A stretch of 64,000 nucleotides of DNA, taken from an uncultured virus (IMG/VR IMGVR_UViG_3300047157_000170). Lineage: Duplodnaviria; Heunggongvirae; Uroviricota; Caudoviricetes. The stretch is from IMG/VR virus record IMGVR_UViG_3300047157_000170; one strand, 5' to 3'. The translations under genes and the position numbers were made by a program. Under the pieces are notes generated by a model, which had not been told where the DNA came from, did not search any database, and was given only the letters and a program-made list of their open reading frames with translations. This document shows, one piece after another, positions 7,161 through 24,117 of this stretch (position 1 is its first letter; each line of letters starts with the position of its first letter).

Positions 7161-7168
7161 TATAAATA
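7161..7168 (+). promoter_or_regulatory. T4-type late promoter upstream of iscU
   Basis: TATAAATA. Confidence 0.6.
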
Positions 7169-8206: not shown

Positions 8207-8230
8207 CAAATACCAGTTCGATAGTATACT
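8203..8230 (+). promoter_or_regulatory. Sigma70-type promoter for the gp33-bS21-gp59 operon
   Basis: TTGACA-N16-TATACT. Confidence 0.6.
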
Positions 8231-8259
8231 AGTATAGTAATGAAAATAAAAGTGATTAT

Positions 8260-8490
8260 ATGATTTTAACCAAAAAAAGGTTTACAGAAGCAATCGAAAC
8301 TCTAGTCTTAGAGAAAGGATTAAACTACATTGATGCAATCGTGCATTATTGTGAGACCCAACATCTTGACCCAGAATCAGTAAAGAACTTAATTACTCCA
8401 CCTCTTAAACAAAAGATAGAGAGTGATGCATTATCTTACAACTTATTAAAACCAAACGCAAAGAAAGGAAAAGGCAAATTACCAATATGA
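8260..8490 (+). CDS. 33: Late transcription coactivator gp33
   Basis: F...IE.LV.E..LNYIDAIVHYCE...D.E.V..LI...LK.KIE.DA..YN.L...LPI; position upstream of gp59/gp32. Confidence 0.9.
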   Translation: MILTKKRFTEAIETLVLEKGLNYIDAIVHYCETQHLDPESVKNLITPPLKQKIESDALSYNLLKPNAKKGKGKLPI

Positions 8491-8762
8491 AGAAATTTAA
8501 TCGTACACCACAAAGACAAAAGGAATGGGATAGAAAACCAAAGAAACCATCTGGGCCACCACCATTTGATGTCTTAATGAGACGATTCAAGAAGAAGGTT
8601 GAAAGAGATGGTATTATTGCAGAAGTTCGTGAAAGACGATACTACGAAAAACCATGTGCAAAGAGACAAAAGAAAATGAATGGTTGGAAACGAAAAATTA
8701 AGATTGATAAGATTCGTGAAGAACAAGCATTGGAAGCTTACAAAAGAACCAATAGGTATTGA
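8487..8762 (+). CDS. rpsU: Phage-encoded 30S ribosomal protein bS21
   Basis: FDVLMRRFKKKVERDGIIAEVRERRYYEKP..KR core motif. Confidence 0.85.
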   Translation: MKKFNRTPQRQKEWDRKPKKPSGPPPFDVLMRRFKKKVERDGIIAEVRERRYYEKPCAKRQKKMNGWKRKIKIDKIREEQALEAYKRTNRY

Positions 8763-8765
8763 TAG

Positions 8766-9355
8766 GTGGATGCAAGATTTGGATATGAATCATACAAATT
8801 ATACTCTAGGGATTAAACTACATTACAATTCTGATTATGATTTTAATAGATACAATGGAAAAGTTAGTGCATCATTTGAGAGTTATCTCAAAAGGAACGA
8901 TAAGTTCCAATTTGCAAAACTTAGGAAACAACACAATGGACAACTTAAGGATTTCTACATATCAAACTTCATGTACAAGGACTTTTGGGTAGGAGATTTA
9001 TTTGGTGAAGAAGCAAAACAAAACTATACAGAGTGGAAAAAATACAACCAGTCTCTTCTCTACTCTTTCGAGAAAGATATCAGACATCTTAACTCACTTG
9101 AAGGAAAACTGGACAATCTATTTAATACTAACGACTTCTAGTCATCCTATCATTGTCCAGTGTCTTTTATCCAAGTCCATATCATTTGGAACAGGAGTAT
9201 TACTTGACTCCCTTATTGGATGGAGTTCCCGCTTAAACATATCAGAACAATATGTCTGGCCAGAAGTTAAACAGAGATTGCAAAAGACTCAAGGGTTTAT
9301 CGGATACAATAACGATACATTAAAGAAAAAGGTATTAGAAATATATGACTTTTGA
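8766..9355 (+). CDS. 59: Helicase loader gp59 (two probable sequencing frameshifts, near 8805 and 9135)
   Basis: Reconstructed YESYKLYLGIKLHYNSDYDFNRYNGKV...KRNDKFQF.KL...SLLYSFEKD...HPII; position before gp32. Confidence 0.85.
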
Positions 9356-10151
9356 CACATATGAACCTACAGTAAATGAAATGATGGATATTGATAATGC
9401 AATGTCGTATTTAAACCTCTCAGAGGGTCGTACTGCATACATTATAGGTAATGGTCAGTCTAGGATAGGATTAGACCTAACGACTCTTAATGGGGATATA
9501 TGGGGGTGTAATGCACTGTATCGTGACTATGAACCAGACTATCTAACCATTATAGATGTCAGTATCATGGGTGAGTGTTGTGAATCACAATATCCAAAAT
9601 ACAACAAATGTTACTTCTCTGGGGAATGGGATGACCCATTAGGATTTGAAGAATACAATGTGATTAAAGGAACAATGGGTGTACCAGTAAGAGAGTGGAT
9701 AGACCCAAGTCATTCTAAAGTGACTATGCATGGAAAAGGTAATGGGAATGTAGGTATCCTAGAAATGCAAGCAATAGGAATAGAGGATGACTATAAGATT
9801 TCAAAGATAGGTGGCCCTCCAGAGGATTACCATCTATTTGAGAATTGGTTCGCAGGTACTACTGCAGCTGCAATGGCATCTATGAACCATGACTACGATA
9901 ATGTAGTCTTTGTCGGATTTGATTCTATTTGGAATTACGATTCGACTAAATATAATAACATCTATGCTGGAACTCGATGTTATGGGACAGAAGACGACCC
10001 AGAGAACAACAGACTTGTTGAGACTGGTGACCAAGGTTGGATATCCCAGACAGAACAACTAAAGATTTTAGTTGACAGATTCCAAAACATAGACTATTAT
10101 ATAATGAAGGATGAATTAAGTATTACTTCTTTAGAAAGATACTTAGTTTAA
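9345..10151 (+). CDS. Conserved phage protein with IIGNG.SR / GCNALYRD motifs (MptE/DUF115-like fold, uncertain)
   Basis: AYIIGNGQSR, IWGCNALYRDYEPDYL, VFVGFD, YNNIYAGT. Confidence 0.6.
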   Translation: MTFDTYEPTVNEMMDIDNAMSYLNLSEGRTAYIIGNGQSRIGLDLTTLNGDIWGCNALYRDYEPDYLTIIDVSIMGECCESQYPKYNKCYFSGEWDDPLGFEEYNVIKGTMGVPVREWIDPSHSKVTMHGKGNGNVGILEMQAIGIEDDYKISKIGGPPEDYHLFENWFAGTTAAAMASMNHDYDNVVFVGFDSIWNYDSTKYNNIYAGTRCYGTEDDPENNRLVETGDQGWISQTEQLKILVDRFQNIDYYIMKDELSITSLERYLV

Positions 10152-10195
10152 TACAATAATAAAATGCAATACAATGCTAATACGAGGATAAAATT

Positions 10196-11089
10196 ATGTC
10201 ATTTCAAGACTTAAAAAAATCACGAGGTGGATTCGACACCTTACAGAAATCACTAGAACAATCATCTAGTGGAACTGAAACTAAATCATACAATGATGAC
10301 CGATACTGGAAAATCGACTTAGATAAGACTGGTAATGGTTATGCAGTTGTAAGATTCTTACCAGCATCACAGAACGAGGATATGCCTTGGGTTCAATACT
10401 TTGACCATGGTTTCCAAGGGCCAGGTGGATGGTACATTGAGAAGTCTTTAACGACTCTTAATGAGAAAGACCCAGTATCAGAACACAATACTGAATTGTG
10501 GAACTCTGGTCTTGAGTCAAACAAGGATATAGCAAGGAAACAGAAAAGAAGGTTGCACTATGTGTCAAACATTCTTGTAGTTTCTGACCCTACACATCCA
10601 GAGAATGAAGGTAAAGTATTCCTATTTAGATATGGGAAGAAAATCTTCGAAATGTTGAAAGACAAAATGCAACCACAGTTTCAAGATGAAACACCAGTAA
10701 ATCCTTTTGATTTATGGGAAGGTGCAGACTTTAAAATCAAAGTTCGTAAAGTAGATGGATACTGGAACTATGATAAATCAGAGTTTGCAACTCCAAAACC
10801 ATTATCAGATGATGAGGCACGAATGGAAGCAGTCTGGAATAGTCAACATTCATTAAAAGATGTTATTGGTGCAGACCAGTTTAAATCTTACGATGAACTG
10901 AAACAAAAACTCGACAGAGTTTTAGGAATGACAGCATCTACATCAACTGCAGCTTCGGTTGCATCTGATATGGACGATGTTGCATATCCAAGTCCAGAAC
11001 CAACAGTTGCAGAACCTACTACTGTATCAACAGATGTAGAGGAAGATGAGACACTCTCATATTTCCAAAAACTTGCAAATGATGTGTAA
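10196..11089 (+). CDS. 32: Single-stranded DNA-binding protein gp32
   Basis: DDRYWK...DKTGNGYAVVRFLP, HGFQGPGGWYIE, FRYGKKIF, NPFDLWEGADFK; acidic tail. Confidence 0.97.
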   Translation: MSFQDLKKSRGGFDTLQKSLEQSSSGTETKSYNDDRYWKIDLDKTGNGYAVVRFLPASQNEDMPWVQYFDHGFQGPGGWYIEKSLTTLNEKDPVSEHNTELWNSGLESNKDIARKQKRRLHYVSNILVVSDPTHPENEGKVFLFRYGKKIFEMLKDKMQPQFQDETPVNPFDLWEGADFKIKVRKVDGYWNYDKSEFATPKPLSDDEARMEAVWNSQHSLKDVIGADQFKSYDELKQKLDRVLGMTASTSTAASVASDMDDVAYPSPEPTVAEPTTVSTDVEEDETLSYFQKLANDV

Positions 11090-11116
11090 GGATTGTCAAT
11101 TCTAATCTATTTGAAT

Positions 11117-11124
11117 TATAAATA
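11117..11124 (+). promoter_or_regulatory. T4-type late promoter ahead of a structured intergenic region
   Basis: TATAAATA. Confidence 0.6.
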
Positions 11125-11129
11125 TACTA

Positions 11130-11292
11130 TGCAGTAATAGAATTGACTTAGGGGGCTGAGTAACCACTTGACTCAGAGAATGTACCAAGTAGGCTGGTTG
11201 AGGTTTGGGTACATACATCGTGGTAAGATATCAAATGCGGCAGTGTGATATCGGTTAGGTAGCGGGTCTACAAAGAGGGGCTAATCTAACAA
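11130..11292 (+). ncRNA. Candidate four-hairpin ncRNA or structured leader
   Basis: Stems CTGAGT/ACTCAG, ATGTACC/GGTACAT, GATATCA/TGATATC, GTTAGGTAGC/GCTAATCTAAC; GC-richer than flanks; no long ORF. Confidence 0.5.
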
Positions 11293-11314
11293 CTTTATAT
11301 TATGGAAAATTCTT

Positions 11315-11521
11315 ATGACAAAGCAATGGCATGGTGGGAAGGGTTCAAAACAACGCCCATCAGAAGGTACAGTCTATCAAGACAATTGGGAAAAGATATT
11401 TGGTAAGAAAGAACCAAAGGTAAAGTCACATAAGAAAACACCTAAACATGGACTGACTCAAGTCCACAAAGATAAAACTAAAACTATTCCAAGAAAAGAA
11501 AAGTATTCTACCCTAGACTAG
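11315..11521 (+). CDS. Small basic hypothetical protein
   Basis: WHGGKGS..RP...Y.DNWE.IFG motif, recalled from marine phages. Confidence 0.7.
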   Translation: MTKQWHGGKGSKQRPSEGTVYQDNWEKIFGKKEPKVKSHKKTPKHGLTQVHKDKTKTIPRKEKYSTLD

Positions 11522-13467
11522 GGTAATGAAGTGCAGAATGCCTCATCATTTGTGAACCAGTTGCATTGAATCTTTTTATATTATTACTAACTCTATTACT
11601 TACTTGAGGTGCAACAACAACATTGTTATTTTGTCCTTGAGGTTGGGTAGTACTAGTTGGTGATACATCGGTTGCAGTTACATTTGCATTGAAGTTTAAA
11701 TCCACATTTTTCATGTCCTTAAGTGCTTCTGTAATTTTCTCAAGATGTTCAACTTTTTTGTCTGTTATACTACCTAGTCCTTTACCTATTTGTAGAATAC
11801 CATCACCTACCATACCTAACTTTGTACCAAGGTCAGCAGCTAACTGTAATTGAGACAGTTTTTTGAGTTCACCAGAGAAGTCTTCACCAGTCCATCCACG
11901 AATTAAATCACCACTAAAGAGACCACCTTTCTCACCATCTGGTAGTTTTGGGAATTCAAATCCTTTTAATGCAGTTTTTAGACTAGTAATATTATTGATT
12001 TTTTCAGACATGTCACCAGCATATGAACCTAGTGCAGTCTGATAATTCTGTTAGTGGATGGTCAGAAAGTGCTTGTGCTATAATACCACGACCACCACTT
12101 ATATCCATTAATTCATCTATATCTCCACTTATACTTGCAAGTTGTTGAATGTTTTGTTTGATTCTAGGGACATTCATGGTTTCAAATGGTAGAATAGAAG
12201 TTGCAAATTCACCTAGTCCTTTACCAATTACAACTAAAGTACCAATCAATGCCATAACAGCTATTGCACCAACACCCATAATCAATGCACCAACACCAGT
12301 AGTCACAATTGCACCAAGAACTCCCATTAGAGTTGCAAGACCTAACATACTACCAAGAACTTTGAGCATGTTAACTTTACCAAACTCTTTCATTCCTTCG
12401 AATGCACCCATCTTTTGACCTAATGCAAATGAACCAAAAATACCAGTAAGACCAACACCTAGTGCAAGACCACCAACTGCTAATGCACCAGAAAATTTAA
12501 ACGCTGCAGTTGCAAATGCACTCATACCAACAGCAGCTGCAGATAATCCAGCACCAGCAGCCACACCAGTTGCAGCTGCAACTCCTAAGAAAATTGATGC
12601 AGCTCTGAATGAACCACCACCTTGAGAATCTTCACCTTCTGGAGCATCGTCTGGTGCAGACGCAGCTGTTGTACCACTTTGAACCATAGTCTGTTTGACT
12701 TGGTTTCTAGCAATTTTTTCTTGTCTCTTATCATTTCTTATTGCAAGTTGCAAGTTCGTTTTGTCAATCTTATCTTGTTTTTTTCTATCAAAGATATTTC
12801 TTTTTATAGACATTGCAATTCTAATTGCTATTGCAGATGCTTGCCTACCAATGAAGTTTAAGAGTGTTCCTAATAATGGTATTTGTTGCAAGAAACCACC
12901 AACAGGCCCAAGGAATGTCAATACTTTATCAAGGTCACCAGATAAATCTTGACCTACTGATTTGAATATTTCACCTTGAGTTAATTTACCACCTTCTTCA
13001 ACAGATTTTTTCAAGTCATCAAATTTACCACCAAAGATTTTTACTGTAGCTCTTTCGAAACCAGTTAGGTTTCTACCAAACTTTTGTTGTTCTTCGAGTT
13101 GTTTCTTTTCAATAATTAATCTTTCATATTCGGTATTACGAGTGAGGTCTTGATTAGTTTCTTTTGCAGTAGACTCCATTGCTTCTATTTTTGCATTAGT
13201 AGCTGCAAGTGCATCGGTTGTCATTGCAATTTGTTTAGCTGTTTGTTTACTAAAACCAAAGTTCTGTTCTAACATACCTTGATTTTTTGCCATAGTTTTG
13301 ACAGCATCAGATAAACCTTCTTGATTATCGATGTTCTTTTCGAACGCTTCTCTTGCCTTTTCTGAACCCTTAGTAGACTCTGCACGAGACTTTCTAAGTT
13401 CAGTAATGACTTTTTGTGCTATAGAGTTTTGCTCTTTTGCACTTAATCCTTTATCTTCGTCTGCCAT
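11508..13467 (-). CDS. Tape-measure-like / gp29-like protein (frameshift near 12012)
   Basis: ORFs 12013..13467 and 11508..12011 abut; helical, Ala/Gly-rich hydrophobic segments; NNVVVAP C-terminus; lies downstream of gp26/gp51. Confidence 0.6.
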
Positions 13468-13479
13468 AATACTATTTAT

Positions 13480-13863
13480 CTATTTGTCGTTGTTAGTGGA
13501 GTGTTCTTTTGCAGCTGAGTTGACATATAGTCCAAACCAAGCAGCTCCTGCTCCAACTAGAATACTGATAAGACCAGATTGTTCCATTGTTGGTGCTTCT
13601 AATCCTATGAACCACATTACTACATAGTATATTAAGAATATGTATACACTTAAGAATGCACGAGGCCATATTCTCCAACTATCTACTGCTCTTGCAGCGA
13701 ATATCCATTTTTGCCATGGATTAGTCTTATCATCATGTGTTAACTCAAATATTTGTTGTTTGAGGTCATTGTTTTCGGTAACCATCTCCATAAACTTACT
13801 TAAGTCTATTTCAACTTCATTACGACTCATGTCACCACTGAATCTTTCTCTATTCTCAGACAT
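13480..13863 (-). CDS. Two-TM membrane protein (possibly holin-like)
   Basis: DSWRIWPRAFL..YI...WF.....PT.EQSGLIS..VGAGAAWFGLY; GGAG RBS. Confidence 0.6.
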   Translation of the reverse strand: MSENRERFSGDMSRNEVEIDLSKFMEMVTENNDLKQQIFELTHDDKTNPWQKWIFAARAVDSWRIWPRAFLSVYIFLIYYVVMWFIGLEAPTMEQSGLISILVGAGAAWFGLYVNSAAKEHSTNNDK

Positions 13864-13884
13864 TATACTCTCCTATTCTATCTG

Positions 13885-14067
13885 TTATCTGTTCTGTTGT
13901 TGTTTCATCTTCAATTCTTCATCTTCAAGATGAGACACTAGTAGAGAGACATATATCTCCCTTTCCCAAGGATGCATATCATCCAGTTCGGTCAATGACC
14001 AATTGTGGTGTTGAATTAAACCAAAGTTTGTCTGAATGTAATTTGCAAGTGTTTCATGAGAAAGGGG
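13885..14067 (-). CDS. 51: Baseplate hub assembly protein gp51-like; no start codon of its own
   Basis: LSHETLANYIQTNFGLIQHHNWSLTELDDMHPWEREIYVSLL; begins right after the gp26 TAG. Confidence 0.8.
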   Translation of the reverse strand, partial: PLSHETLANYIQTNFGLIQHHNWSLTELDDMHPWEREIYVSLLVSHLEDEELKMKQQQNR

Positions 14068-14793
14068 CTAGACGAAAAAATTCTGAATTCCTTCTAGTTT
14101 TACCTCATTATGAGTACTACATTTACTACATTCAAACTCCACATTCTTTACCAGTTTTGGTAGTTCATTAAACCATTCCATCACATTATTGAATTGTTCA
14201 GTTGACAATTCGTTCATAAAATCATCTAATTCTTTTTCAGTAAAGTCACTTCTATTTTGAACTTCATCTTCTGTAAATACAGAGTCGATGGACATTGCAA
14301 GAATAGTAAATAAATCATTTGTACTGATTGTTGCTACATCCTCTACAATACCTTGCACCTCATTGAAGTTTGGAACTTTCAAAGTGATACCTATAGTGTC
14401 AGTTAACATTACTTTGTTATCCTTAACTTCACCTTCTACTTGAATAGAATTCAAGTCTACTTTTACAGGTGTTATTCCATCACATTCTGGTTGGTCTTTA
14501 CATCCCAACTGAATAGTAGTTTCTTCACCAACAGATTTAATCCTAATTTGCATAAACAAATATTCTAAATCTGTGTTTGATAGATGTCTAACTGAATCTC
14601 CAGATTCACTTAAACCACTACAACTTTCAACTAAGTTGATAACTGTATGTGCTATCGTTTTATTTTCACCATCCTCTAGTGCTTGAAGTAGTACCTTCTG
14701 TTCACCTACAGTGAAAGGTCGGTACTTTGCTTCAATACCAGATACAGGTAGTTTACAAAAATACTCTACAGTATTTAATTTAGGTAATGCCAT
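14068..14793 (-). CDS. 26: Baseplate hub subunit gp26
   Basis: MALPKL, YRPFTV.EQKVLL, DLEYLF.QIRIKSVGE, C..C...N.V.LEGIQNFF. Confidence 0.92.
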   Translation of the reverse strand: MALPKLNTVEYFCKLPVSGIEAKYRPFTVGEQKVLLQALEDGENKTIAHTVINLVESCSGLSESGDSVRHLSNTDLEYLFMQIRIKSVGEETTIQLGCKDQPECDGITPVKVDLNSIQVEGEVKDNKVMLTDTIGITLKVPNFNEVQGIVEDVATISTNDLFTILAMSIDSVFTEDEVQNRSDFTEKELDDFMNELSTEQFNNVMEWFNELPKLVKNVEFECSKCSTHNEVKLEGIQNFFV

Positions 14794-14809
14794 AATATAC
14801 TCCTATTGA

Positions 14810-15421
14810 TTATCCGAAGATTTTGTCTTCAATTTTACCTTTAATTTTATTTGAGAATTTACTTAAATGTTTATCCATGAAACCCATAAACAGGTTAGAT
14901 GGTTTAGAATTAGTAAACTCTCCATGCCAGTATCTATATCGAAACTGTGCATTAAATTTTGTTATATCTCCATTTTCATTTCCAAGATTAACTACACCTA
15001 GTTGTACAGGAAATGCATCGGTCATGACACACCTATAGTTAACATTATCTTGTTTGTCTAATGCCTCAACCATGATAATACCAGTGTAATCATCATGAAA
15101 TCTACTATGGAAATTACCTTCTGCATTTCCATTTATAGTAGACATCCACAATTCAATTAATTCTCTATCTTCAAAACTATTATCTAGTAAGAATGAACAA
15201 TCAAATGCATCATATTGTGGTTTATGTGGTATTGCTCTCTTAGGGCCATATTCTGATTCTTCTACTGTAAAGAAACCTTTGCCAGGCAATGTTGCAGATT
15301 CACATTTAATACCTCTGATACTAAGACCACCATTCTTTGCACCAGTACCAAACATTGCAACATTGTATCTATTACCTCGTTGTAAATTATCTATTTGTGC
15401 CTTAAATCTTTCTAATTTCAT
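14810..15421 (-). CDS. Tail-tube-like protein / tube initiator (gp54/gp19 family)
   Basis: R.NRY.V, CESATLPG, YGP.R..P, DAFPV.LG.V.L, F.YRYW. Confidence 0.75.
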   Translation of the reverse strand: MKLERFKAQIDNLQRGNRYNVAMFGTGAKNGGLSIRGIKCESATLPGKGFFTVEESEYGPKRAIPHKPQYDAFDCSFLLDNSFEDRELIELWMSTINGNAEGNFHSRFHDDYTGIIMVEALDKQDNVNYRCVMTDAFPVQLGVVNLGNENGDITKFNAQFRYRYWHGEFTNSKPSNLFMGFMDKHLSKFSNKIKGKIEDKIFG

Positions 15422-16002
15422 GCCATTTTTTTCCTACTTTCTTTCCAAACTGCATCCATACTTGATTTCTTGAATGACTCTGTTGGTAAAAATATTGCAA
15501 TTTCCCAATCTGCACTATCTACCTTTGCAAATGTACTTCTTACATGTGAAGATAGATAATGTTTGTAACATGCTTTATAAAATGGTTTACCTCTTATTTG
15601 TTTAAGTAAATCATATGTCAATCTAAATCTTGTTGTCTCATCATATTTATCATTATTTGTTGTATCATATAATGCATCTAAAAACTGAGCTCGTAATGAG
15701 TGAGGTAAATAATGCAGATTCAATCCATAAAATCCACCTTTAGCAGGTTCTACTGGTATACACAAGGGAAACCTATCATAATAAGGTAAGGTTTTTTTGT
15801 GTTTTGGGTCGTACATATACATGTACATATCACCAAAGATTTGTCTTTTTCGTTGAGTTGCATCCCTCAGTAGTTCTTGTCTACTTACACCTTTAATTGT
15901 GGATACTCGTTGTTTGAACCATCTCATGGACTCTTTAGTCCTTGCTTGGATACCACCACGAAAAGCTTCTCGTTCTAATTTATCAAATAGTTTACCTGCC
16001 AT
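15418..16002 (-). CDS. 2: DNA end protector gp2
   Basis: YMYDPKHK.TLPYYDRFPL...GFYGLNLHYLP...C.KHYL...WEIAIFLP.E.F.K. Confidence 0.95.
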   Translation of the reverse strand: MAGKLFDKLEREAFRGGIQARTKESMRWFKQRVSTIKGVSRQELLRDATQRKRQIFGDMYMYMYDPKHKKTLPYYDRFPLCIPVEPAKGGFYGLNLHYLPHSLRAQFLDALYDTTNNDKYDETTRFRLTYDLLKQIRGKPFYKACYKHYLSSHVRSTFAKVDSADWEIAIFLPTESFKKSSMDAVWKESRKKMA

Positions 16003-16007
16003 ATATG

Positions 16008-16015
16008 TATTTATA
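16008..16015 (-). promoter_or_regulatory. Late promoter for gp2, 5 nt before ATG
   Basis: TATAAATA on the minus strand. Confidence 0.75.
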
Positions 16016-16020
16016 CCACA

Positions 16021-16050
16021 TTGACAAGTAGGTACATTTTTTTGTATAAT
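16021..16050 (+). promoter_or_regulatory. Sigma70-type early promoter
   Basis: TTGACA-N18-TATAAT; the spacer contains GTAGGTACATT. Confidence 0.8.
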
Positions 16051-16081
16051 ATATGTATAGAGTGAGTTAACAAAGGAGAAA

Positions 16082-16408
16082 ATGAGATACCACGAAAACT
16101 ACCAAGAAATCGAAAAGAATTTTAACAAGGTTGTTAAGACTGATAGCACTGTAGAGTTCATCTACAAAGGGTTTATCTTACATAGAAAGAGAGACGCTGG
16201 TTGGGGTTATACTTACTACGATATACACAATGAGTTCAATCCAATGTTTGCACAATCTCAAATCAAAGGCCCTAAATTGTGGGGTGATGATATGAAAGAT
16301 GCAAAAAGAGCTGTTGATGAGTTAATTCAACTTGCATGTGGTGAAAGAAGTGACTACAGTTTAATACAAGATTTTGACTTCGATGTAGTAGAAAGAATTT
16401 GGGGATAA
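16082..16408 (+). CDS. Hypothetical early protein inserted in the late region
   Basis: AAGGAG RBS, own sigma70 promoter, opposite strand to its neighbours. Confidence 0.75.
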   Translation: MRYHENYQEIEKNFNKVVKTDSTVEFIYKGFILHRKRDAGWGYTYYDIHNEFNPMFAQSQIKGPKLWGDDMKDAKRAVDELIQLACGERSDYSLIQDFDFDVVERIWG

Positions 16409-16456
16409 TATTTTAATAAGTGAGGTATGAGGAAAAATGACATAGAATAAAGTAAC

Positions 16457-16544
16457 GGCGAGTTAGTCTCTAGATGTCGAAAGAGACACGACCCCACCTT
16501 GGGTAGATATTGAAGGTTCGCAACCTTCCCCAGAGGTGGGTTTT
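16457..16544 (+). ncRNA. Structured intergenic element with a tRNA T-arm-like hairpin
   Basis: GTCTCT/AGAGAC stem; CCCACCT-TGGG/CCCA-GAGGTGGG stem enclosing GAAGGTTCGCAACCTTC. Confidence 0.35.
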
Positions 16545-16584
16545 AAAAACCCAGAATGAAACATAAGAACCCTCTGGGTTTTTT
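16545..16584. terminator. Probable bidirectional intrinsic terminator
   Basis: AAAAACCCAGA-N17-TCTGGGTTTTTT between convergent genes. Confidence 0.55.
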
Positions 16585-16585
16585 A

Positions 16586-16735
16586 TTATATAATAGACAA
16601 TACTACATATATCAATAAGGATACAGTTCCAAGAAAACTTGCACCAAGAATCAATCCAGTAATAAAGATATTCATAGGTGTAGGGTCAAAGTCTTCCTTA
16701 GTACCCAATCCCAATAATAGTTTTAATATAATCAT
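16586..16735 (-). CDS. Small membrane protein (49 aa)
   Basis: MIILKLLLGLGTKEDFDPTPMNIFITGLILGASFLGTVSLLIYVVLSII; ATGA overlap with the gp4 stop. Confidence 0.55.
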   Translation of the reverse strand: MIILKLLLGLGTKEDFDPTPMNIFITGLILGASFLGTVSLLIYVVLSII

Positions 16736-17166
16736 TTCGGTACTAAGTGGTCTTCTGTTAATATTCTAAATTTATATCCTCTATCCAGACAATACTCTCT
16801 AGCTGCATCCCATTTACATTCATTGATTGCATAAGTTCTTGCCTCACGAAGATACTTACCATAGTGTTTACCTTTCTTACTAGGTCGTTTACATTGTGAC
16901 TTAGGTTTGACCTCTATTATCTCTTGAATCATCTTACCATCATATTGTTTGTATTTAATCCAGAAGTCTGGGTAATATCGATGGACTTTATTGTCAATAG
17001 AACGATAAGGTATCACAATCTCTTCACTACTCCATTCTAGAATAGAATCATTCTTATCACAATACTTCATAAACCTCAATTCCCACATAGAACGATATAT
17101 GACTTTTGTGGGGTCACCTTTATACTTTTTATATTGTTTTGGTTTGAATCTTCCCTTGTAACTCAT
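16732..17166 (-). CDS. 4: Head completion nuclease gp4
   Basis: YKGRFKP....KYKGDP..VIYRS.WE..FM..CD....I.EWSSEE..IPY...HRYYPDF...EVKP...KW.AA...F.ILTE. Confidence 0.95.
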   Translation of the reverse strand: MSYKGRFKPKQYKKYKGDPTKVIYRSMWELRFMKYCDKNDSILEWSSEEIVIPYRSIDNKVHRYYPDFWIKYKQYDGKMIQEIIEVKPKSQCKRPSKKGKHYGKYLREARTYAINECKWDAAREYCLDRGYKFRILTEDHLVPK

Positions 17167-17209
17167 ATAAATACCTTATACATAACTAAATCTATAGAGA
17201 GTATTTATA
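17167..17209. promoter_or_regulatory. Pair of opposed late promoters for gp48 (+) and gp4 (-)
   Basis: TATAAATA at 17167-17174 (+) and TATTTATA at 17202-17209 (-). Confidence 0.7.
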
Positions 17210-18723
17210 TGAATTTTTTCAAATCATTAAAAGCAAAATTGTTGGGTTCAATCAAAGAAGACCTCAACTCAGCTTTAGGCAGTCGAAGAGTATCTTTTAA
17301 TTCAAAAATATCTGGTGCATTAGATGACCTAATTGCAATGAAGACTGGTATTAATATATCAAATGTCCCACAAAGTATATCAGAAGAAGCATTACTAAGT
17401 GCAGAAGATAGAAAATCAGCAGAAGCTGATATTGAAAACAGGGCAGCTGCTATGGGTAGAGTTACTCCAAAACAACATGAAATACTCAAATTTCCTAAGT
17501 CAGATACTAGATTTGTAGATAATTGGATTATTTTTAGAACTATTAAAAGACCCATTTCAGATTTAGGTGCAACACCATCAAGTGGTGCATTTAATAATTC
17601 AGATTATGGTGTCATTTCAACTAAATTAGGAGAGGGTGTTTCAGGCCCTCCATCACCACATAAAGGTATGTCTAAAGAATATACTATTGCAATGTATTTT
17701 CCAACTGGAGTAAGAGATAATATATCAGTAGAATATGAGGCAAAAGAAGTAGGACTTAGTGATATTGCATTAGATTCATTAATGCAAGGAGAATTTGGTA
17801 CATTATTAGATGCAGCTGGTGGTGCATTTGGTGAAACATTCCAGAAAGCAAAACAAGCTGCAATAGCTTTCTCTTCATTTGAATCTGGTTTAGTAGTAGA
17901 TAATCCTAAATTTAATACCTTTCAAGGAGTAGGATTCAGAGACCATAGTTACTCATTCACATTATATCCATATAATGAAACAGATGCAGAAGAAATTACT
18001 CAAATTGTTCATGCATTTAAGATGATGATGTTACCTATGTCATCAAGTAAGAATAGAAGAATACAAATAATGCCAGCAGAATGGAGTATTGATTTCCAAG
18101 GCCCTATCTTAGGTCATATAGAACATCCACAAAATTGTTTCTTAAAATCATGTGATGTAGACTATTCTGGTGGTAAAGATATGTCATTTATCGAAGGATT
18201 TACACAATCACAAGAGGGAACACCAGCATCAGAAGATGGTGTTTGCAGACCAGAAGATAAACTACCAGTTAAGTCTGCTGTACAACATTATCCTAATGGT
18301 ATTAATTTAAACTTAGTATTCCAAGAAATACTCAACATCGATAGACTCAGATATGTACAGAGAGTAGCTGCAAGTGCAATGGGAGCTAAACAAGATGTAC
18401 AACAAGAACTTGACCAATTTGAAAAACAAGTTAATGCAGAGGTCACTGATGAAGCAATACAAGACCAAAGCTTTGGTTCACAAGAAGCAGCTAAAGAGTA
18501 TATAGCTAAACATGGTTTAGGTAGTGAAGTTGAAGTATATTTAATAAGTGGAACAGAACTAGGGGATAAATTAGATAGTACTGGTATGAGAGTAGCAAGT
18601 TTTATTCCTGGCGTTGTTGGTGCTGCTGCTCTAGCAACATCTTCCATGGCACGAGGTACAGGTAATTCACAACAAAAATATGGTATAAGAAGAAAAAATC
18701 CACAAGGTAACGAAACAGGATAG
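17209..18723 (+). CDS. 48: Baseplate tail-tube cap gp48-like
   Basis: NP...FQGVGFR.HSYSF.LYP.NE.DA..I..IV..FK..M.P, CFLKSCDVDYS, L.FQEI. Confidence 0.8.
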   Translation: MNFFKSLKAKLLGSIKEDLNSALGSRRVSFNSKISGALDDLIAMKTGINISNVPQSISEEALLSAEDRKSAEADIENRAAAMGRVTPKQHEILKFPKSDTRFVDNWIIFRTIKRPISDLGATPSSGAFNNSDYGVISTKLGEGVSGPPSPHKGMSKEYTIAMYFPTGVRDNISVEYEAKEVGLSDIALDSLMQGEFGTLLDAAGGAFGETFQKAKQAAIAFSSFESGLVVDNPKFNTFQGVGFRDHSYSFTLYPYNETDAEEITQIVHAFKMMMLPMSSSKNRRIQIMPAEWSIDFQGPILGHIEHPQNCFLKSCDVDYSGGKDMSFIEGFTQSQEGTPASEDGVCRPEDKLPVKSAVQHYPNGINLNLVFQEILNIDRLRYVQRVAASAMGAKQDVQQELDQFEKQVNAEVTDEAIQDQSFGSQEAAKEYIAKHGLGSEVEVYLISGTELGDKLDSTGMRVASFIPGVVGAAALATSSMARGTGNSQQKYGIRRKNPQGNETG

Positions 18724-18731
18724 GAGAAAAC

Positions 18732-19461
18732 ATGGCAGAACAATATTTTAAACATTATCCAACGATTGATTTTGACCTCAAGAATGATGGTAATTTAATC
18801 GAAGCAAAGGATATATTTCGTAATATTAGAGTATCAGAGGATGTAGAAGAAGGTATCACTGGGTATGAATATTATTATGTCGATGACCAAGATAGACCAG
18901 ATGTTCTTGCAGATAAACTGTATGCAGATAGTACTTTATATTGGTTATTCTGGATGGTTAACCCTCATCTTGCAACCTATACTGATTGGCCCCAAGTCTC
19001 AGAGAGTACTAGAAAGATTCATAAAAAGAAAGTATTCTGGTAAAGCATTAGTGAGCAACCAGCAGTCGGATATAGTAGGCAGTTCGGACTCGAAATTTTT
19101 CCAAGGGGAAAAGGTAGTAGGTTCTACCAGTTCGGCCTTCGGATTCGTCACTAAGATAGACCCAACCAATAAACAGATTATTCTAAACGATATCGAAGGA
19201 ACATTCATCAATAACGAAGTAGTCACAGGGTCGAACAGCTCGAAGAGTTTCACTATTATATCGGTCAGAAATTTTTCAGACTCACCTCATCACTACGAGG
19301 ATTCAGAGGGTACGAAAACTACCATAAGTACAGGTAATACACCAGTATCTAACTTCGACTACGAACAAAAGTTTAATGACGATAAAAGAAGCATCAAGTA
19401 CATTAAACTAGAATTTATACCAGAATTACTCAGACAATTCAAGAGTATGATAAGAGAGTAG
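18732..19461 (+). CDS. 53: Baseplate wedge gp53 (frameshift near 18990)
   Basis: YFKHYP.I.FD, DIFR, RPDVLA.KLY.DS.LYW..., DWP, HHYE, VSNFDYE...ND.KR.IK. Confidence 0.85.
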
Positions 19462-19465
19462 ACAT

Positions 19466-21001
19466 ATGCCCATAATGATAGGTAAAAATACTCCTAATTC
19501 TTATAGGATTGAGAGTATCACCATAACAAACAATGAAGGTAACTCATATGAAGTGAGTAATTTAATGCAATCCTTTCAGATTACTGAGAGTATATATCAG
19601 ATGTTTCTTACAGGTAGTATGACCTTTGCAGATTCAATGAATATATTTAATAAGATTGGATTCACAGGACAGGAATATATTCGAATACATATCGGTGGTA
19701 TAAGAGGGTTTGAGACTATTGTACCACATGACCAGAGAATAGACCAAGTATTTCGTATATTTAATGTCTCTAATCATATCAGAAGTATAGAAAATCCAGC
19801 ACTCCAGATATATAGAGTGGAATTTTGTAGTCCTTTATTATATCTTGCACGAACTCAGAGAATATCTCAGGCATATAGAGGAAAGACTGGGGATATATTA
19901 AATAAAATATGTTTTGATAAATTAAAATTCCAAGAAAAACCGAAAAAGAAAACAGGTCAAGGAAATAGTTCGAAACCGCGTGTGAAGGGGGGGCAGGCAC
20001 TCGGTAACTTCTTCTCTCTATTCGAGTCTGGTGTGGGAGAGGTGAATGGAATGATTATCCCAAACTGGTCAGTGTTTAAGACTCTGAGATGGTTGAGAGA
20101 CAATACCTCAGACGATACAGAGGAGTGGGGAGACTCTTACTACTTCTATCAGACTGCTATGGATGGATTCAAGTTCCACAATGTAGATTCTATGAGAAGT
20201 ATAGAGTATATGAGTGGCAAAGTTACCTTCTCTCCTCGTATGGGTGATGGAGATGACGACTTTAATTACGATTTCAAAGAGGGTAGAGGTAATGACATGC
20301 TCTCCTACAACAAGAGTGACACTTATAATGTACTCCACAGTCATTTAAGTGGTATGTATAGTGGTAATATACAGGTATTTGACCCTAAGAATAAACTTTT
20401 GATGGATATTCCGAGTCAATTTGACCAACAATTCCCTATAGAGATAAAAAAGGGCTCTACTTTCTATAAAAATGATAAGAAACACTTCTCAGTATCCCCT
20501 TCTTTTAGATTTAATGCAGAAAATATTAAGATTCCACCAGATGGGGGCTTAGCAGGACAGGAAATGCCGCCCTTAGATGCAGATATAGAGGGAGACCCTA
20601 TCACAGAAGCCACAGGAGCCGCTATATCGTTCAATTATAACAACCCCTTCTCCTTTAGTCAAGGGATACATGAGAGTGGTCACAGTGTATCCTATGCAAC
20701 AGAGAAGAATAAGTTCAATAGAGAGAGGGCAGAGAAGTTATTAGAGTCCAATAGAATGAATATCCAGATATCTGGGAGAACTAACATCTCATGTGGTATG
20801 ACTATTAATATAGATTTAAAACAACCTACCAGTACAGCAGATGTCAGAGACGAACTTACACAGAATGGTAAGATGTTAGTAGAAGGTATTACTTGGATAG
20901 GAACTGAGGATGGCTTGGAAACACAACTCACATGTACAACAGATGGATGGCAAGTGAGTCCAGATACCTTTGTTGACCACAAAGGCTCTCCACAATACTA
21001 A
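19466..21001 (+). CDS. Baseplate hub / tail protein (gp27-like)
   Basis: I.ESIY...LTG...F.DS, TGQE.I.I, RISQAY.G, IIPNWS, YYFYQT.DGFKF; located between gp53 and gp5. Confidence 0.7.
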   Translation: MPIMIGKNTPNSYRIESITITNNEGNSYEVSNLMQSFQITESIYQMFLTGSMTFADSMNIFNKIGFTGQEYIRIHIGGIRGFETIVPHDQRIDQVFRIFNVSNHIRSIENPALQIYRVEFCSPLLYLARTQRISQAYRGKTGDILNKICFDKLKFQEKPKKKTGQGNSSKPRVKGGQALGNFFSLFESGVGEVNGMIIPNWSVFKTLRWLRDNTSDDTEEWGDSYYFYQTAMDGFKFHNVDSMRSIEYMSGKVTFSPRMGDGDDDFNYDFKEGRGNDMLSYNKSDTYNVLHSHLSGMYSGNIQVFDPKNKLLMDIPSQFDQQFPIEIKKGSTFYKNDKKHFSVSPSFRFNAENIKIPPDGGLAGQEMPPLDADIEGDPITEATGAAISFNYNNPFSFSQGIHESGHSVSYATEKNKFNRERAEKLLESNRMNIQISGRTNISCGMTINIDLKQPTSTADVRDELTQNGKMLVEGITWIGTEDGLETQLTCTTDGWQVSPDTFVDHKGSPQY

Positions 21002-21162
21002 AGGACAGTGTTTTGGGACTCCTAGACTTGTTTTGGGGCGGGCATTGCTACCCCCTATTAAAGTCTTGGGCAGTAAATGTCCTAGGAAAAGGCTATTATA
21101 TAATGATGGGACTCCTAGATATTCTTCTGGGACTCCTATAAATAACAATAAGAGGAAATAAT

Positions 21163-21303
21163 ATGATTAAGAATATAATAGACTCACATAGAAGAATGTT
21201 AATCGATTTGATGGACATTACTGGTATGGATGAATATACCTTATCATGGTTTTGTTTTATGAAAGGTGTAATCTTTACATCTATTATAGTATGGATGTTT
21301 TAA
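21163..21303 (+). CDS. Small membrane protein (46 aa)
   Basis: MIKNIIDSHRRMLIDLMDITGMDEYTLSWFCFMKGVIFTSIIVWMF; GAGG RBS; TATAAATA at 21137. Confidence 0.65.
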   Translation: MIKNIIDSHRRMLIDLMDITGMDEYTLSWFCFMKGVIFTSIIVWMF

Positions 21304-21309
21304 GATATT

Positions 21310-21472
21310 ATGACTAATTGGATATATAATAAACTAGCACCACATGCTCTAAGGTTTAGAGAGTGGTCTAAAGATAAATTATGGGTTAAAATACCACTGG
21401 GACTCCTAGTATCTATGGATGATGGGGATATTTAATCCCTATTGGTGTGTTTACCCAGTGTGTTGGATATAA
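21310..21472 (+). CDS. Small membrane protein, probable indel near 21412
   Basis: MTNWIYNKLAPHALRFREWSKDKLWVKIPLGLLV then LWMMGIFNPYWCVYPVCWI in a shifted frame. Confidence 0.45.
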
Positions 21473-21475
21473 ATT

Positions 21476-21853
21476 ATGATTAGAACTTTATTAGGTGCAA
21501 AAATACATGGTTGTATCTGCACCGATGTAGACTTAGACTACGAAGGTAGTATATTAATTGACGAAAACTGGATGGATGAGGTGGGACTCCTAGTCCATGA
21601 ACAGGTAGATGTATATAATAAAACCAATGGTAACCGACATACGACCTATGTCCTACCATTACCGAGAGGTTCAAATGAGGTATCAGTCAATGGTGCTGGT
21701 GCCCATTTAACCGATATAGGAGACGAACTGATTATTTGTTCTTATGTACAGTATGATGAGAATAATGAGACCTTACCTCTCAGACATACACCGAAAATAA
21801 AAATAATCGACCCTAAAGACCGACTTTATAGGGAACTATTGGGATTGACATGA
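21476..21853 (+). CDS. panD: Aspartate 1-decarboxylase PanD
   Basis: R.LL.AKIH....T.VDL.YEG|SI.ID (G-S self-cleavage site), NG.R..TYV, NGA.A.L...GD..II. Confidence 0.9.
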   Translation: MIRTLLGAKIHGCICTDVDLDYEGSILIDENWMDEVGLLVHEQVDVYNKTNGNRHTTYVLPLPRGSNEVSVNGAGAHLTDIGDELIICSYVQYDENNETLPLRHTPKIKIIDPKDRLYRELLGLT

Positions 21854-21940
21854 GTAATACAGTAATATTCTTTCATATGGTAGTATTAATACCTATGGTG
21901 TACTTTATATGGAAGGATGGATATAACAAAGGAATAAGAG

Positions 21941-23029
21941 ATGCCGACATTCGCAGGATTAAAGAATAATTTTTATACAGGAGTAGTCGAAGACCGATTT
22001 GACCCACTATCTTTGGGTCGTGTTCGTGTTCGTCTCTATGGTCTTCATACCGATGATAAAAAATTAATCTCTACAGGTGATTTACCTTGGAGTGATGTCC
22101 TTATGCCGACTACTTCTCCGAGTCTTTCTGGTCTTGGTCTTTCTCCTCATGGACTGGTAGATGGTTCTACTGTTATGGGATTCTTCCGAGACGAAGATGA
22201 GATGCAAGACTTTGTAGTTATTGGTAGTTTATTTGGCAGACCGACTGATAAATATAAAATCGATGGTGGTGACTCTAATAAACAAGTAGACCGAGGGCCC
22301 GATAAGGGATTTAATGACTCTCGTTATAAAGATAAAAGTGAATTTATAAGTTCTGTTGATGGTCAGAAAAATAGTGCTACTGGAAGAAACTTTAATTTTG
22401 GATTAACTCTAGACCAATCCCCAGTTAGACCGAATAAATTAGAATTTAAATTAGGTGGTGAAGGAACTATTATTGATGAGGGTAAAGAAAGTAAATTAGA
22501 AGAAAATTTCCCTAGAGAAGAATATACTAAACTCAGTTTATCCGATGTGCATAGAAGTATGCAAGGGTCACCAAATGTTTATCCGAATACTTTAATTGAA
22601 AGAACCAAAGGTGGTACAGTTAAAGAACCGACTCGTGCAAAGAATGTGGTGAATCCTACTTATCCTTTTGCACATATAATCGAATCCGAATCTGGTCATG
22701 TATTAGAAATGGATGATACCCCTGGCTCAGAAAGATTACATATGTATCATAGGTCTGGTACTCGTTTAGAAGTACTTGCAGATGGGACTCAAACCATGAA
22801 AGTCTCTAATGATTCCTATGAAATAATAATGAAGGATAAAAAAATATTAATATCTGGTAGTGCAGATATAGAACTTGCAAATGGTGATTATAATTTAATT
22901 ACTAAAAAAGGAAATACCGAAGATGGTGGTAATGTATTTATTACATGTGATAGAGATATGAATATTACAGCTAAAGGTGCAGTAAAAATAAAAGGTAAAG
23001 TATCTATTAATGGTACTAAGTTTGATTAA
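21941..23029 (+). CDS. 5: Baseplate central spike gp5 (OB-fold plus beta-helix, no recognisable lysozyme)
   Basis: GVVEDR.DPL.LGRVRVR..G.H, LPW..V.MP, YP..H...SESGH..E.DDTPG.ER.H..HRSGT. Confidence 0.92.
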   Translation: MPTFAGLKNNFYTGVVEDRFDPLSLGRVRVRLYGLHTDDKKLISTGDLPWSDVLMPTTSPSLSGLGLSPHGLVDGSTVMGFFRDEDEMQDFVVIGSLFGRPTDKYKIDGGDSNKQVDRGPDKGFNDSRYKDKSEFISSVDGQKNSATGRNFNFGLTLDQSPVRPNKLEFKLGGEGTIIDEGKESKLEENFPREEYTKLSLSDVHRSMQGSPNVYPNTLIERTKGGTVKEPTRAKNVVNPTYPFAHIIESESGHVLEMDDTPGSERLHMYHRSGTRLEVLADGTQTMKVSNDSYEIIMKDKKILISGSADIELANGDYNLITKKGNTEDGGNVFITCDRDMNITAKGAVKIKGKVSINGTKFD

Positions 23030-23034
23030 ATATA

Positions 23035-24117
23035 ATGTCCGAAACCACAGAAAATAATACTACTCCAGAACCAATCCCTTGTCCAGAGGTTTTAATTCCG
23101 AGTGCAGATGACCTCGAAGAAATAATAATATTTATTGGAAACACTTATGGATGGGAATATATTAAACCCATCGAAGAAATATTAGGTGCATTTCCATTAT
23201 CTCATACTTGGCCAGATGATTTAGATTGGCCTGAACTAGAATGGGAAGGTAAGATACAAGCAATCGTTGAGGAATTTAAATTATATCCTATAGTAAAGAT
23301 TGCAGAGTTTCTTGCAGTTCCATTAACAGTTGTTGTTCCACCATTTGGTATAGAAGTAGATTGTAAAAAATTATTTGAAGACCCTAGTTATAAATTAGAA
23401 TTACTTGACGAACTAGAAAAGAGTTTGGGTCTAGATGTCATTGAAGAACTCATGGATGACTTTAGTGCAGAGAATTGGAATGGTGAGTTTGGTATAGATA
23501 TTCCAAAAATTAAACTTGCAAAAGCATGGAAAGAAATGATTGAAGAATTAAAAAAAATCTTCATGACTGGTGGATTTAGTGCAATAGGAAAACTATTAGA
23601 TAAAGAACCATTAAAAACTCTTATAGAAACTTTACCAGACCCTATAGGTTTCTTCTTAGAATTAATTGCATCCTTTCCTAAAGGTGGATATGAATTTGAT
23701 GCAGATGCATTATTTAAGAAGTTAAGAGAACAAGCAGAGAAAGAAGGAATAGAATTAAAAGAATTATTACTACAAACAGAAATACCTTTTGTATCAGAAA
23801 TACCAGCAGAGATGTTAGGACTGGAAGATGTCTTACCAGAAACCCTAGGTGATTTAATTGATTTAGGTAAAACAGGAGAACATAAGAAAATAGATTTTCC
23901 TAGATGGGATGAACAAAAATTATTTGAAAGATTTAAAACTTTTATAAAAGACCTACCTCAAATATTGTTTGAAGCCTGTCTTGCAAAACTTACAGAACTT
24001 ATTAAGTTCTTTATACCACCAGAGATACCAATACCATTTACTCTATGTACATTCTTATCATTACTTGGTTTCCCAAAACAAATAGATGTTGTAGAACTAG
24101 TCGTTGAAGGTGCATAA
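23035..24117 (+). CDS. Acidic hypothetical protein in the baseplate cluster
   Basis: 360 aa ORF between gp5 and gp25. Confidence 0.7.
   Translation: MSETTENNTTPEPIPCPEVLIPSADDLEEIIIFIGNTYGWEYIKPIEEILGAFPLSHTWPDDLDWPELEWEGKIQAIVEEFKLYPIVKIAEFLAVPLTVVVPPFGIEVDCKKLFEDPSYKLELLDELEKSLGLDVIEELMDDFSAENWNGEFGIDIPKIKLAKAWKEMIEELKKIFMTGGFSAIGKLLDKEPLKTLIETLPDPIGFFLELIASFPKGGYEFDADALFKKLREQAEKEGIELKELLLQTEIPFVSEIPAEMLGLEDVLPETLGDLIDLGKTGEHKKIDFPRWDEQKLFERFKTFIKDLPQILFEACLAKLTELIKFFIPPEIPIPFTLCTFLSLLGFPKQIDVVELVVEGA

Follow-up and report, generated by a model that had tools for sequence, protein, structure and literature searches.

What would make a four-letter word change strand in the middle of a phage gene? 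The question is raised by the DNA of an uncultured virus (IMG/VR record IMGVR_UViG_3300047157_000170), of which a stretch of 64,000 nucleotides was analysed; this whole stretch is called the window below. According to PHROG scans, the window comes from a T4-like myophage. On its plus strand, CCGA and its reverse complement TCGG stand in a ratio of 3:29 at positions 1-20200 and of 76:7 at positions 20201-64000 (Fisher p 2.4e-17). The change falls inside a plus-strand gene for a 511-amino-acid tail or baseplate hub protein (19466-21001, phrog_350), which we call gp27-like from its position before gp5. A quite possible answer, and the best supported of the readings that we considered, would be a replication origin with an oriented signal, WCCGA (W being A or T), which is read by the replisome, possibly as a primase start site, and has been kept against a purge of CpG.

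Left of 20.2 kb, the sole plus-strand CCGA are at 10300, 14814 and 19940, and right of it the sole plus-strand TCGG are at 32333, 42527, 44759, 48048, 54614, 57205 and 58049. A preliminary description of this DNA had reported a strand switch near 20-20.4 kb, and its sites were recovered almost position for position. The last left-type TCGG is at 20001 and the first right-type CCGA at 20411, so that the switch interval is 20002-20410, inside the gp27-like gene, with the lone CCGA at 19940 just to its left. The left polarity domain (1-20001; 29 TCGG and 3 CCGA on the plus strand) includes early plus-strand, late minus-strand and late plus-strand genes alike. The CCGA:TCGG ratios are 1:13 in the plus-strand genes of 1-11100, 1:7 in the minus-strand genes of 11500-16700 and 1:7 in the plus-strand genes of 17100-20200, to be compared with 76:7 in the plus-strand genes of 20201-64000, i.e., in the right domain (20411-64000, plus strand). 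In the minus-strand late cluster, CCGA on the genes' own sense strand is TCGG on the plus strand. As the description had also held, the coding strand is no explanation: the switch lies inside a plus-strand gene and the minus-strand genes follow the DNA strand. In 298 oriented sites, CCGA is preceded by A or T in 91% and by C in 1%, which gives the word WCCGA.

The switch is particular to this word. Word pairs were scanned for change points without prior choice, and a pair was retained if its skew reversed sign with p<1e-3 on both sides. Among 116 pairs of 4-mers, only CCGA/TCGG and the overlapping ACCG/CGGT reverse, the change point of CCGA/TCGG being at 19750 on a 250-bp grid (2:28 to the left, 77:8 to the right). 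CCG/CGG is the sole reverser among 32 pairs of 3-mers, and two superstrings are the only ones among 401 pairs of 5-mers. In the window, CCGA/TCGG with its sub- and superstrings is thus alone in reversing.

The switch is not an assembly joint, since it is spanned collinearly by 33 of 39 distinct related contigs and is bridged (20001-20411) by a single contig in each of four sequencing runs from four studies. No inversion joint at the switch was seen in the bridging contigs of these four runs, which answers the concern, raised from the start, that a chimera or an inversion could mimic such a pattern. Contig breaks and small indels concentrate further right, at 21035-21100.

The signal is written into synonymous codons. 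Two null models were used, 500 synonymous shuffles inside genes and the codon usage of the whole window. In the right-hand plus-strand genes, CCGA occurs 76 times against 35.9 +/- 5.2 in the shuffles and TCGG 6 times against 36.0 +/- 4.8; the observed difference was attained by none of the 500. The minus-strand late genes have 7 sense CCGA against 3.6 and 1 TCGG against 7.0 (P 0.002). The prediction that the skew would outlast codon shuffling held for these two groups and failed for the left-hand plus-strand genes, where the counts (CCGA 1 vs 4.2, TCGG 15 vs 16.4) are not significant under within-gene shuffles. Under the codon usage of the window, the right-hand genes have 76 CCGA against 30.0 and 6 TCGG against 43.6. 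To the left, plus-strand CCGA amounts to 1 against 6.7 in the early plus-strand genes, 1 against 6.4 in the minus-strand cluster and 0 against 1.8 in the late plus-strand genes of 16-19.5 kb. This null shows the disfavoured orientation to be depleted left and right of the switch, whatever the gene class. The favoured one is enriched 2.3-2.5-fold in late genes and just 1.3-1.4-fold in left-hand plus-strand genes.

The same rule is seen at codon junctions. Right-hand genes place NCC before GAN in 50 of 376 cases (13%) and before other codons in 136 of 3077 (4%), while NTC precedes GGN in 3 of 269 cases (1%) compared with 13% elsewhere; NCC-GAN junctions account for 50 of 75 coding CCGA to the right. 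On the sense strand of the minus-strand late genes, NCC is found before GAN in 5 of 33 cases vs 3%, and in the plus-strand genes left of the switch in 0/81 and 0/20. Conservation of individual sites shows a modest excess, NCC-GA junctions being kept in 16 of 31 cases vs 25 of 76 for NCC before other codons. An oriented CCGA signal is thus encoded in synonymous codon choice, independent of the coding strand, and the use of synonymous codons proposed in the preliminary description is borne out.

This signal stands on an unusual background, as CpG is strongly purged from the window (589 vs 1940 expected, a ratio of 0.30). The surviving CpG are nearly all in ACGA/TCGT (170/109), TCGA (118) and CCGA/TCGG. 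ACGT and CCGG are absent, and ACGG, CCGT and GCGC occur 2, 1 and 2 times. In its disfavoured orientation the motif is as scarce as the purged CpG words, and in its favoured one it is near its mononucleotide expectation (about 76, by arithmetic from base frequencies), i.e., one orientation is retained above a purged CpG baseline. The purge is also found in the relatives G003, G004 and G008, in the DNA-polymerase loci L040-L085 and in sister groups down to ~70% DNA polymerase identity. It is absent from C48C1 (Kyanoviridae), the closest named phage, and from the cellular contigs (48-62% GC) of the bin that holds phage pieces. Candidates for its source are restriction avoidance, self-avoidance of a phage nuclease and the decay of modified cytosine.

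Density peaks on either side of the switch had been noted before, and both are present. The left dense array (19066-20004, minus strand) consists of seven plus-strand TCGG at 19066, 19084, 19132, 19139, 19261, 19692 and 20001, and falls within the gp53-like gene and the first (5') third of the gp27-like one. The gp53-like gene alone has five TCGG, within 19066-19261, against 1.1 expected. The right dense array (21522-23101, plus strand) has 23 CCGA and no TCGG, and these 23 are among only 39 CpG in 21476-23110. It runs through a gene for a PanD-like aspartate decarboxylase (21476-21853, plus strand; PF02261, E 1.9e-34), with 6 CCGA against 0.2 expected, and the gene for a gp5-like baseplate hub/tail lysozyme (21941-23029, plus strand), with 15 CCGA against 1.1 expected and 5.2 under within-gene shuffles (P<0.001). 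The PanD homologue is inserted between the gp27-like and gp5 genes and is present in the relatives that reach the site; it retains a YEGS stretch that resembles the self-cleavage site of E. coli PanD.

Between the two arrays lies a cluster of repeats (21015-21592, plus strand). The 10-mer GGGACTCCTA occurs in exact copies at 21015, 21108, 21129, 21399 and 21583 and nowhere else in the window. With at most one mismatch there are 7 matches vs 1.76 expected, a number reached in none of 100 shuffles. These iterons begin directly right of the gp27-like stop codon, in the region of the contig breaks mentioned above, about 1 kb right of the switch, and the fifth is inside the PanD-like gene. Two small open reading frames (ORFs) of 46 amino acids (with a hydrophobic C-terminus) and 41 amino acids lie between iterons (21163-21435, plus strand) and are conserved in relatives. 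The third iteron abuts a TATAAATA box, which we take to be the T4 late promoter consensus. A leftward sigma-70-like promoter candidate is found antisense in the gp27-like gene (20634-20662, minus strand; TTGACT-17-TATAAT with TG, 11/12). It is a weak lead, as only 9 of 27 relatives have a similar element, the candidate overlaps conserved codons, and the number of promoter-like elements around the switch is not above shuffles (6 vs 9.0). A search of 18.5-23.5 kb against Rfam gave nothing at E <= 1.

The arrangement is conserved. A search of IMG/VR for two GGGACTCCTA 10-mers 8-14 nucleotides apart gave 80 loci, 40 of which (39 distinct) share the gene neighbourhood, with gp27-like proteins that are 40-100% identical. 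In 33 of these 39 contigs the span from gp27-like to gp5 is complete. Among contigs with a right flank of at least 3 kb, 31 of 32 are strongly CCGA (pooled 674:16), and TCGG exceeds CCGA in all 25 with a left flank of at least 2 kb (pooled 45:272), pooled counts that overstate independence as the contigs share ancestry. In the average of the related contigs, the TCGG maximum lies 1.5-2.0 kb to the left of the paired iterons (3.55 per locus and 500 bp, at -2000 to -1500) and the CCGA maximum 0.5-2.0 kb to their right. By arithmetic, the midpoint of the peak bins is ~250 bp left of the pair, so the iterons are near the centre of symmetry. GGGACTCCTA is present in 3-7 copies in each of the 15 distinct related stretches that reach the place; it occurs in 18 of 144 loci, in one of them as a lone chance copy. 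Change-point scans of the relatives G008 (1 of 114 pairs) and G012 (1 of 111) single out CCGA/TCGG too, with a change point 1.0 kb left of the first iteron.

C48C1 is without the iteron/PanD segment, its gp27-like gene overlapping gp5 directly, and it has neither the CpG purge nor polarity (392:387). A group with 70-71% identical DNA polymerase has the CpG purge, yet no TCGG skew upstream of the polymerase gene. In the distant T4-like contig G007 (DNA polymerase 46% identical), no word reverses at the gp27-like gene; its top change points are at 106-110 kb, where a change of gene orientation is suspected.

To place the switch on a whole genome, we used the relative G003 (IMG/VR, 146136 bases), which runs from sheath to terL and is collinear with the window. 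The database rates it as 81% complete and linear, yet its two ends overlap by ~170 bases once G002 and G001 C4 are aligned to it; it is probably a complete genome of ~146 kb with an in effect circular map. Four iterons are found directly after its gp27-like gene and none elsewhere in the 146 kb. The cumulative CCGA-TCGG curve of G003 has one sharp minimum, at the gp27-like gene. Left-domain ratios of other relatives are 4:62 in G004 (over ~52 kb), 3:25 in G008, 4:32 in G010 and 5:26 in G012, and right-domain ratios are 40:4 in G008, 43:4 in G012 and 80:5 in G002. A two-domain model was fitted on the G003 map to 644 mapped sites from six lineages, with both boundaries free. In the best fit, one boundary coincides with the switch, at 104 kb. 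The second is diffuse (140-18 kb, i.e., 36-60 kb clockwise), with near parity from ~140 kb to 28 kb and TCGG dominance beginning near 24-28 kb, and falls short of the antipode at 31 kb (+73 kb of 146 kb). The preliminary description had expected one sharp extremum near the switch and an opposite one elsewhere: the first is found, the second is not sharp. One sharp and one diffuse boundary are what might be expected for a single origin on circularly permuted linear molecules.

The second densest motif patch (13 TCGG, 0 CCGA) is a gene for a CHASE2 sensor with an adenylate/guanylate cyclase, seen in four lineages (G001 C143, locus L031, 349-2184; G003rc 39932-41785). There are no repeats of note beside this gene, and so no second origin is called there.

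The simplest explanation for a favoured strand that changes at a single place, whatever the direction of transcription, is a bidirectional process with its start at the switch. The word is also densest beside unique repeats at the position of T4 oriE, and the second boundary is diffuse. We take the process to be replication from an origin. In the T4 record, oriE is at 79355 inside gene 5, just past the divergence of genes 2 and 4 (both minus) from genes 53 and 5; its primer RNA is the complement of the transcript of gene 5, and the antisense strand carries repEB and repEA. The map position is the same here, with gp2 and gp4 on the minus strand followed by gp48, gp53-like, gp27-like, the iterons and gp5. 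T4 oriE also resembles this site in having direct repeats and in lying at a shift in strand composition, according to the relevant parts of a T4 review (PMC3016281). The same parts place oriE, oriF and oriG at such shifts and report the oriE iterons in syntenic regions of close relatives (PMC3016281). The leftward antisense promoter candidate recalls the promoter of the oriE primer RNA; it has counterparts in only 9 of 27 relatives. No alignment between the small ORFs and T4 RepEA or RepEB was obtained with BLASTP at E <= 100. Synteny with oriE, the unique iterons and the free fit on G003 lend circumstantial support to the bidirectional origin that was proposed at the outset; the lack of a skew step at third codon positions, described below, counts against it.

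We suggest the following mechanism. The gp27-like/gp5 junction (~20.0-21.6 kb) would be the principal origin of the clade, the positional counterpart of T4 oriE, with the five GGGACTCCTA iterons as its core. WCCGA would be kept on the lagging-strand template of the outgoing forks, i.e., on the plus strand to the right and on the minus strand to the left, and most densely in the first 1-2 kb on either side. Under the CpG purge, words with CpG would survive only where they are selected, so that the wrong orientation falls to the purged baseline, the retained one stands out and the direction of replication becomes legible in the sequence. Words packed beside the origin may speed the first priming on the displaced strand and thereby help to set up the opposite fork, a step that we derive from the R-loop model of T4 as given in the parts of the review cited above (PMC3016281). 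From one dominant origin, forks would then run out to the ends of the permuted molecules.

The likeliest reader would be a gp61-type primase moving with the gp41 helicase on the strand that the helicase tracks, other candidates being a helicase loader and a reader of the Chi/KOPS kind. A wider reading, in which WCCGA is the template start word of this primase or of another part of the replisome and its orientation traces the whole replication programme, is less likely than the origin reading as such. The clade does have a T4 gp61-type primase (PDB 8dvf chain H, E 1.7e-45; G003rc 71585-72577) and a gp41 homologue (G003rc 48491-49732); the annotated primase of C48C1, tried for comparison, proved unrelated and nothing follows from it. 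Primase words are similarly short and oriented, and are read on the lagging-strand template by a helicase-bound enzyme. The word is GTC for T7 and GTT or GCT for T4 gp61, and to our knowledge no primase has CCGA as its word. DnaG-type primases start at short oriented template words such as CTG in E. coli and CTA or TTA in Firmicutes, as stated in the parts of PMC2978363 that concern recognition.

The word also behaves in some ways like Chi, KOPS (FtsK) and SRS (SpoIIIE), short words whose strand preference flips at the origin regardless of gene orientation and whose wrong orientation is counter-represented. Those are cellular words of 5-8 nucleotides, read by RecBCD/AddAB or by FtsK-type translocases, and the density of KOPS increases toward the terminus. 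Here, in contrast, the word has 4-5 nucleotides, belongs to a phage and reaches its highest density at the presumed origin, with a diffuse second boundary. Searches of the literature on skewed oligomers, primase recognition and origins of T4-like phages and cyanophages yielded no report of such a phage motif, and the relevant parts of PMC3016281 describe no polar tetranucleotide for T4.

Several observations weigh against an origin read in this way. G003 itself is weaker than the other relatives (29:71 to the left, 55:17 to the right): no pair of 3-mers or 4-mers reaches p<1e-3 on both sides, CCGA/TCGG is outside the top 7 pairs of a free scan, and a gene-wise test limits the strong signal to ~96-144 kb, contrary to a simple picture of two arms. 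The third-position skews GC3 and AT3 show no step at the switch on G003, and the second boundary is diffuse. The sense CCGA:TCGG ratios of two contigs from the window's own lineage are 12:4 and 13:6, and these contigs map to 72-78 kb and 10-27 kb of G003, in or close to the domain where TCGG is expected. The region of the capsid gene, with 3-4 TCGG and no CCGA, does not suit two simple arms either. One related contig (L147) has a right flank of 8:9, other DNA following its repeats, and the shared ancestry of the contigs has been mentioned. Within the right domain, 33893-40949 has one CCGA in ~7 kb, too sparse for Okazaki priming everywhere. The 1948-amino-acid structural gene there (phrog_358, 33867-39713) has 1 CCGA against 4.8 expected and no TCGG against 5.3, and is nearly bare of both words also in G002, G008 and G003. 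Copying 5'-CCGA-3' with a cryptic 3' base would give a primer with an unusual start, a pyrimidine, and the words of T4 gp61 given above are different ones. The T4 repeats are coding repeats of the gp5 beta-helix spaced by 24 nucleotides, unlike the intergenic 10-mer found here, and a link between iterons and oriE activity is not established according to the relevant parts of PMC3016281. Finally, GGGACTCCTA pairs occur in 39 distinct unrelated viral contigs that have no polarity, and on sequence alone the switch may be a terminus instead of an origin.

A first alternative, unlikely in our view, keeps the origin and makes the word a passive trace of it. A C5-marked cytosine in TCGG would deaminate on the single-stranded lagging-strand template, TCGG would decay on that strand only, and CCGA would merely be left over. 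The purge to 0.30 of the expected CpG, with the disfavoured orientation level with other purged CpG words, fits such a context-specific mutational asymmetry. Moreover, the relative G003 encodes an enzyme with a C5 cytosine methylase fold (PF00145, E 2.9e-49; L122:15589-16851, minus strand, outside the window), the closest solved relative of which is SpCmoX (8yf3, E 2.8e-68), a cytosine C5-carboxymethyltransferase of Synechococcus phage S-B43 according to the parts of PMC12783734 that describe it. However, the target of SpCmoX is given there as GC, not CG (PMC12783734). Decay also cannot yield the 16-fold density of CCGA in the PanD and gp5 genes (21 vs 1.3) or lift NCC before GAN to 13% vs 4%, and the general third-position skew does not flip at the switch.

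A second alternative concerns the iterons. As GGGACTCCTA is also found in unrelated contigs without polarity, the repeats could be sites of a regulator rather than of an initiator, i.e., an operator, an enhancer or a centromere-like loading site, with WCCGA serving a protein that tracks outward and no replication start at the site. The remaining 39 distinct loci of the IMG/VR search are unrelated viral contigs of 30-64% GC; in most of those inspected, the GGGACTCCTA pairs stand in AT-rich, promoter-like intergenic DNA, and the third iteron of the window abuts the TATAAATA box, the T4 late promoter consensus. Such a role is improbable, since the polarity spans tens of kilobases, beyond a local operator, the unrelated contigs show none (337:332, 471:411), and we know of no tracking system with a polar word of 4-5 nucleotides.

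The 10-mer itself resembles a binding site for some factor that many marine phages, or their hosts, have in common. Unrelated contigs carry it in clusters of 2-6 copies (L148, L150, L152, L156, L160, L162, L175, L183, L186 and L194 among others), and in most of 13 that were inspected the surrounding DNA is intergenic and AT-rich, often with TATA-rich boxes just downstream; L170 and L199 apparently have it inside coding repeats. No shared gene was found near the pairs among 12 of these loci, and a literature search with GGGACTCCTA returned unrelated primer matches only.

Strand-specific nicking is a third, quite improbable alternative. A nickase would cut the CCGA strand, the nicks would load the gp45 clamp to activate late promoters, and opposite sites would be avoided nearby as two nicks make a break. 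In T4 the activating nick is required in the non-transcribed strand, and swapping the strand swaps the polarity, as described in the pertinent parts of PMC2988020. Both the right-hand late genes and the minus-strand late cluster do carry CCGA on their sense strand. However, the late plus-strand genes of 17134-20200 have the opposite orientation (1:7), 3 sense TCGG and no CCGA are found in the lineage's major capsid gene, early genes are polar too in G004, G008 and G010, and no nickase was identified.

Very improbable is evasion of an orientation-dependent Type III or Type ISP restriction enzyme that recognises WCCGA and needs inverse sites. The word is asymmetric with a constrained fifth position (A or T in 91% of the 298 sites), and phage T7, with its uniformly oriented EcoP15I sites, is a precedent for strand-biased short sites that evade Type III restriction. 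T7 keeps one orientation throughout and evasion predicts the same here, whereas two opposed domains are found in the window, G004, G008, G010 and G012, with a conserved switch at which site density is highest; a permuted genome would hold both head-to-head and tail-to-tail pairs. That the pattern is a by-product of protein composition or of codon-pair preference in translation, with no function at the DNA level, is hardly credible: the 50 of 75 NCC-GAN junctions and the left-hand TCGG excess that shuffling reproduces (15 vs 16.4) would suit it, but the preferred junction reverses between plus-strand genes across 20.2 kb and within one gene, minus-strand genes obey the DNA strand rule, and none of 500 right-hand shuffles attains the observed difference.

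The genes around the switch are those of a T4-like phage. Early plus-strand genes at 1-11 kb include dsbA-like, an exonuclease, the gp59 loader (8680-9141) and gp32 (10196-11089), all by PHROG. They are followed by a late minus-strand cluster (11508-17166) with a baseplate hub protein, a tail tube-like protein, the gp2 end protector (15418-16002) and the gp4 head closure protein (16732-17166), and from 17.1 kb by late plus-strand genes in the order gp48, gp53-like, gp27-like, gp5, gp25, gp6, gp7 and gp8, then gp13-15-like, terS, terL and sheath. TerL is 62% identical to that of C48C1 and 44-45% to those of cyanomyophages, and a megablast search of 19-24 kb against named phages gave no match. 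The phage is common. Altogether 24 sequencing runs were found, all stored as contigs, and 20 of them, from 13 studies of marine or seawater metagenomes, contain 93% or more of the words sampled from 18-24 kb.

Some other features of the lineage were noticed. The sheath gene consists of two overlapping ORFs (61659-62858 and 62824-63690; 399 and 288 amino acids) that match the first and second half of phrog_23, while G003 has a single 668-amino-acid gene; a frameshift, a sequencing error and a genuine split are all conceivable. A 559-amino-acid ORF without family match (50596-52275) has tandem coding repeats with a period of ~30 nucleotides and is placed where the GC skew goes negative, and G003 has a similar array at 135-136.5 kb. 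Possible modification or repair genes are found at 1061-1945, 1926-2516, 2513-3316, 5575-6129, 7694-8206, 52933-53838 and 55681-56400. Three paralogues match the PHROG endonuclease V family through their C-terminal parts, where two of the three match the Pfam 2OG-Fe(II) oxygenase, and their neighbours are three more 2OG-Fe(II) oxygenase genes and a Mom-family gene. This set may be a toolkit for DNA modification or repair. The early region of G003 also has alternative oxidase, cytochrome c and ferrochelatase-like genes.

The origins of T4-like phages are known experimentally from T4 alone, and for their huge uncultured marine relatives there is at present no way to tell where or how replication starts. 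If an oriented word of 4-5 nucleotides marks the direction of forks, metagenomic contigs could reveal origins and fork programmes, and the specificity of a phage primase could be predicted from sequence. What oriE-type iterons do has been an unsettled question since the 1990s, as noted in the relevant parts of PMC3016281, and a second system would then be available to test it. The case shows how a genome-wide purge of CpG can unmask weak selected signals. If the wider reading is true, the orientations of the word would map out how an uncultured marine T4-like phage, abundant worldwide, replicates its genome.

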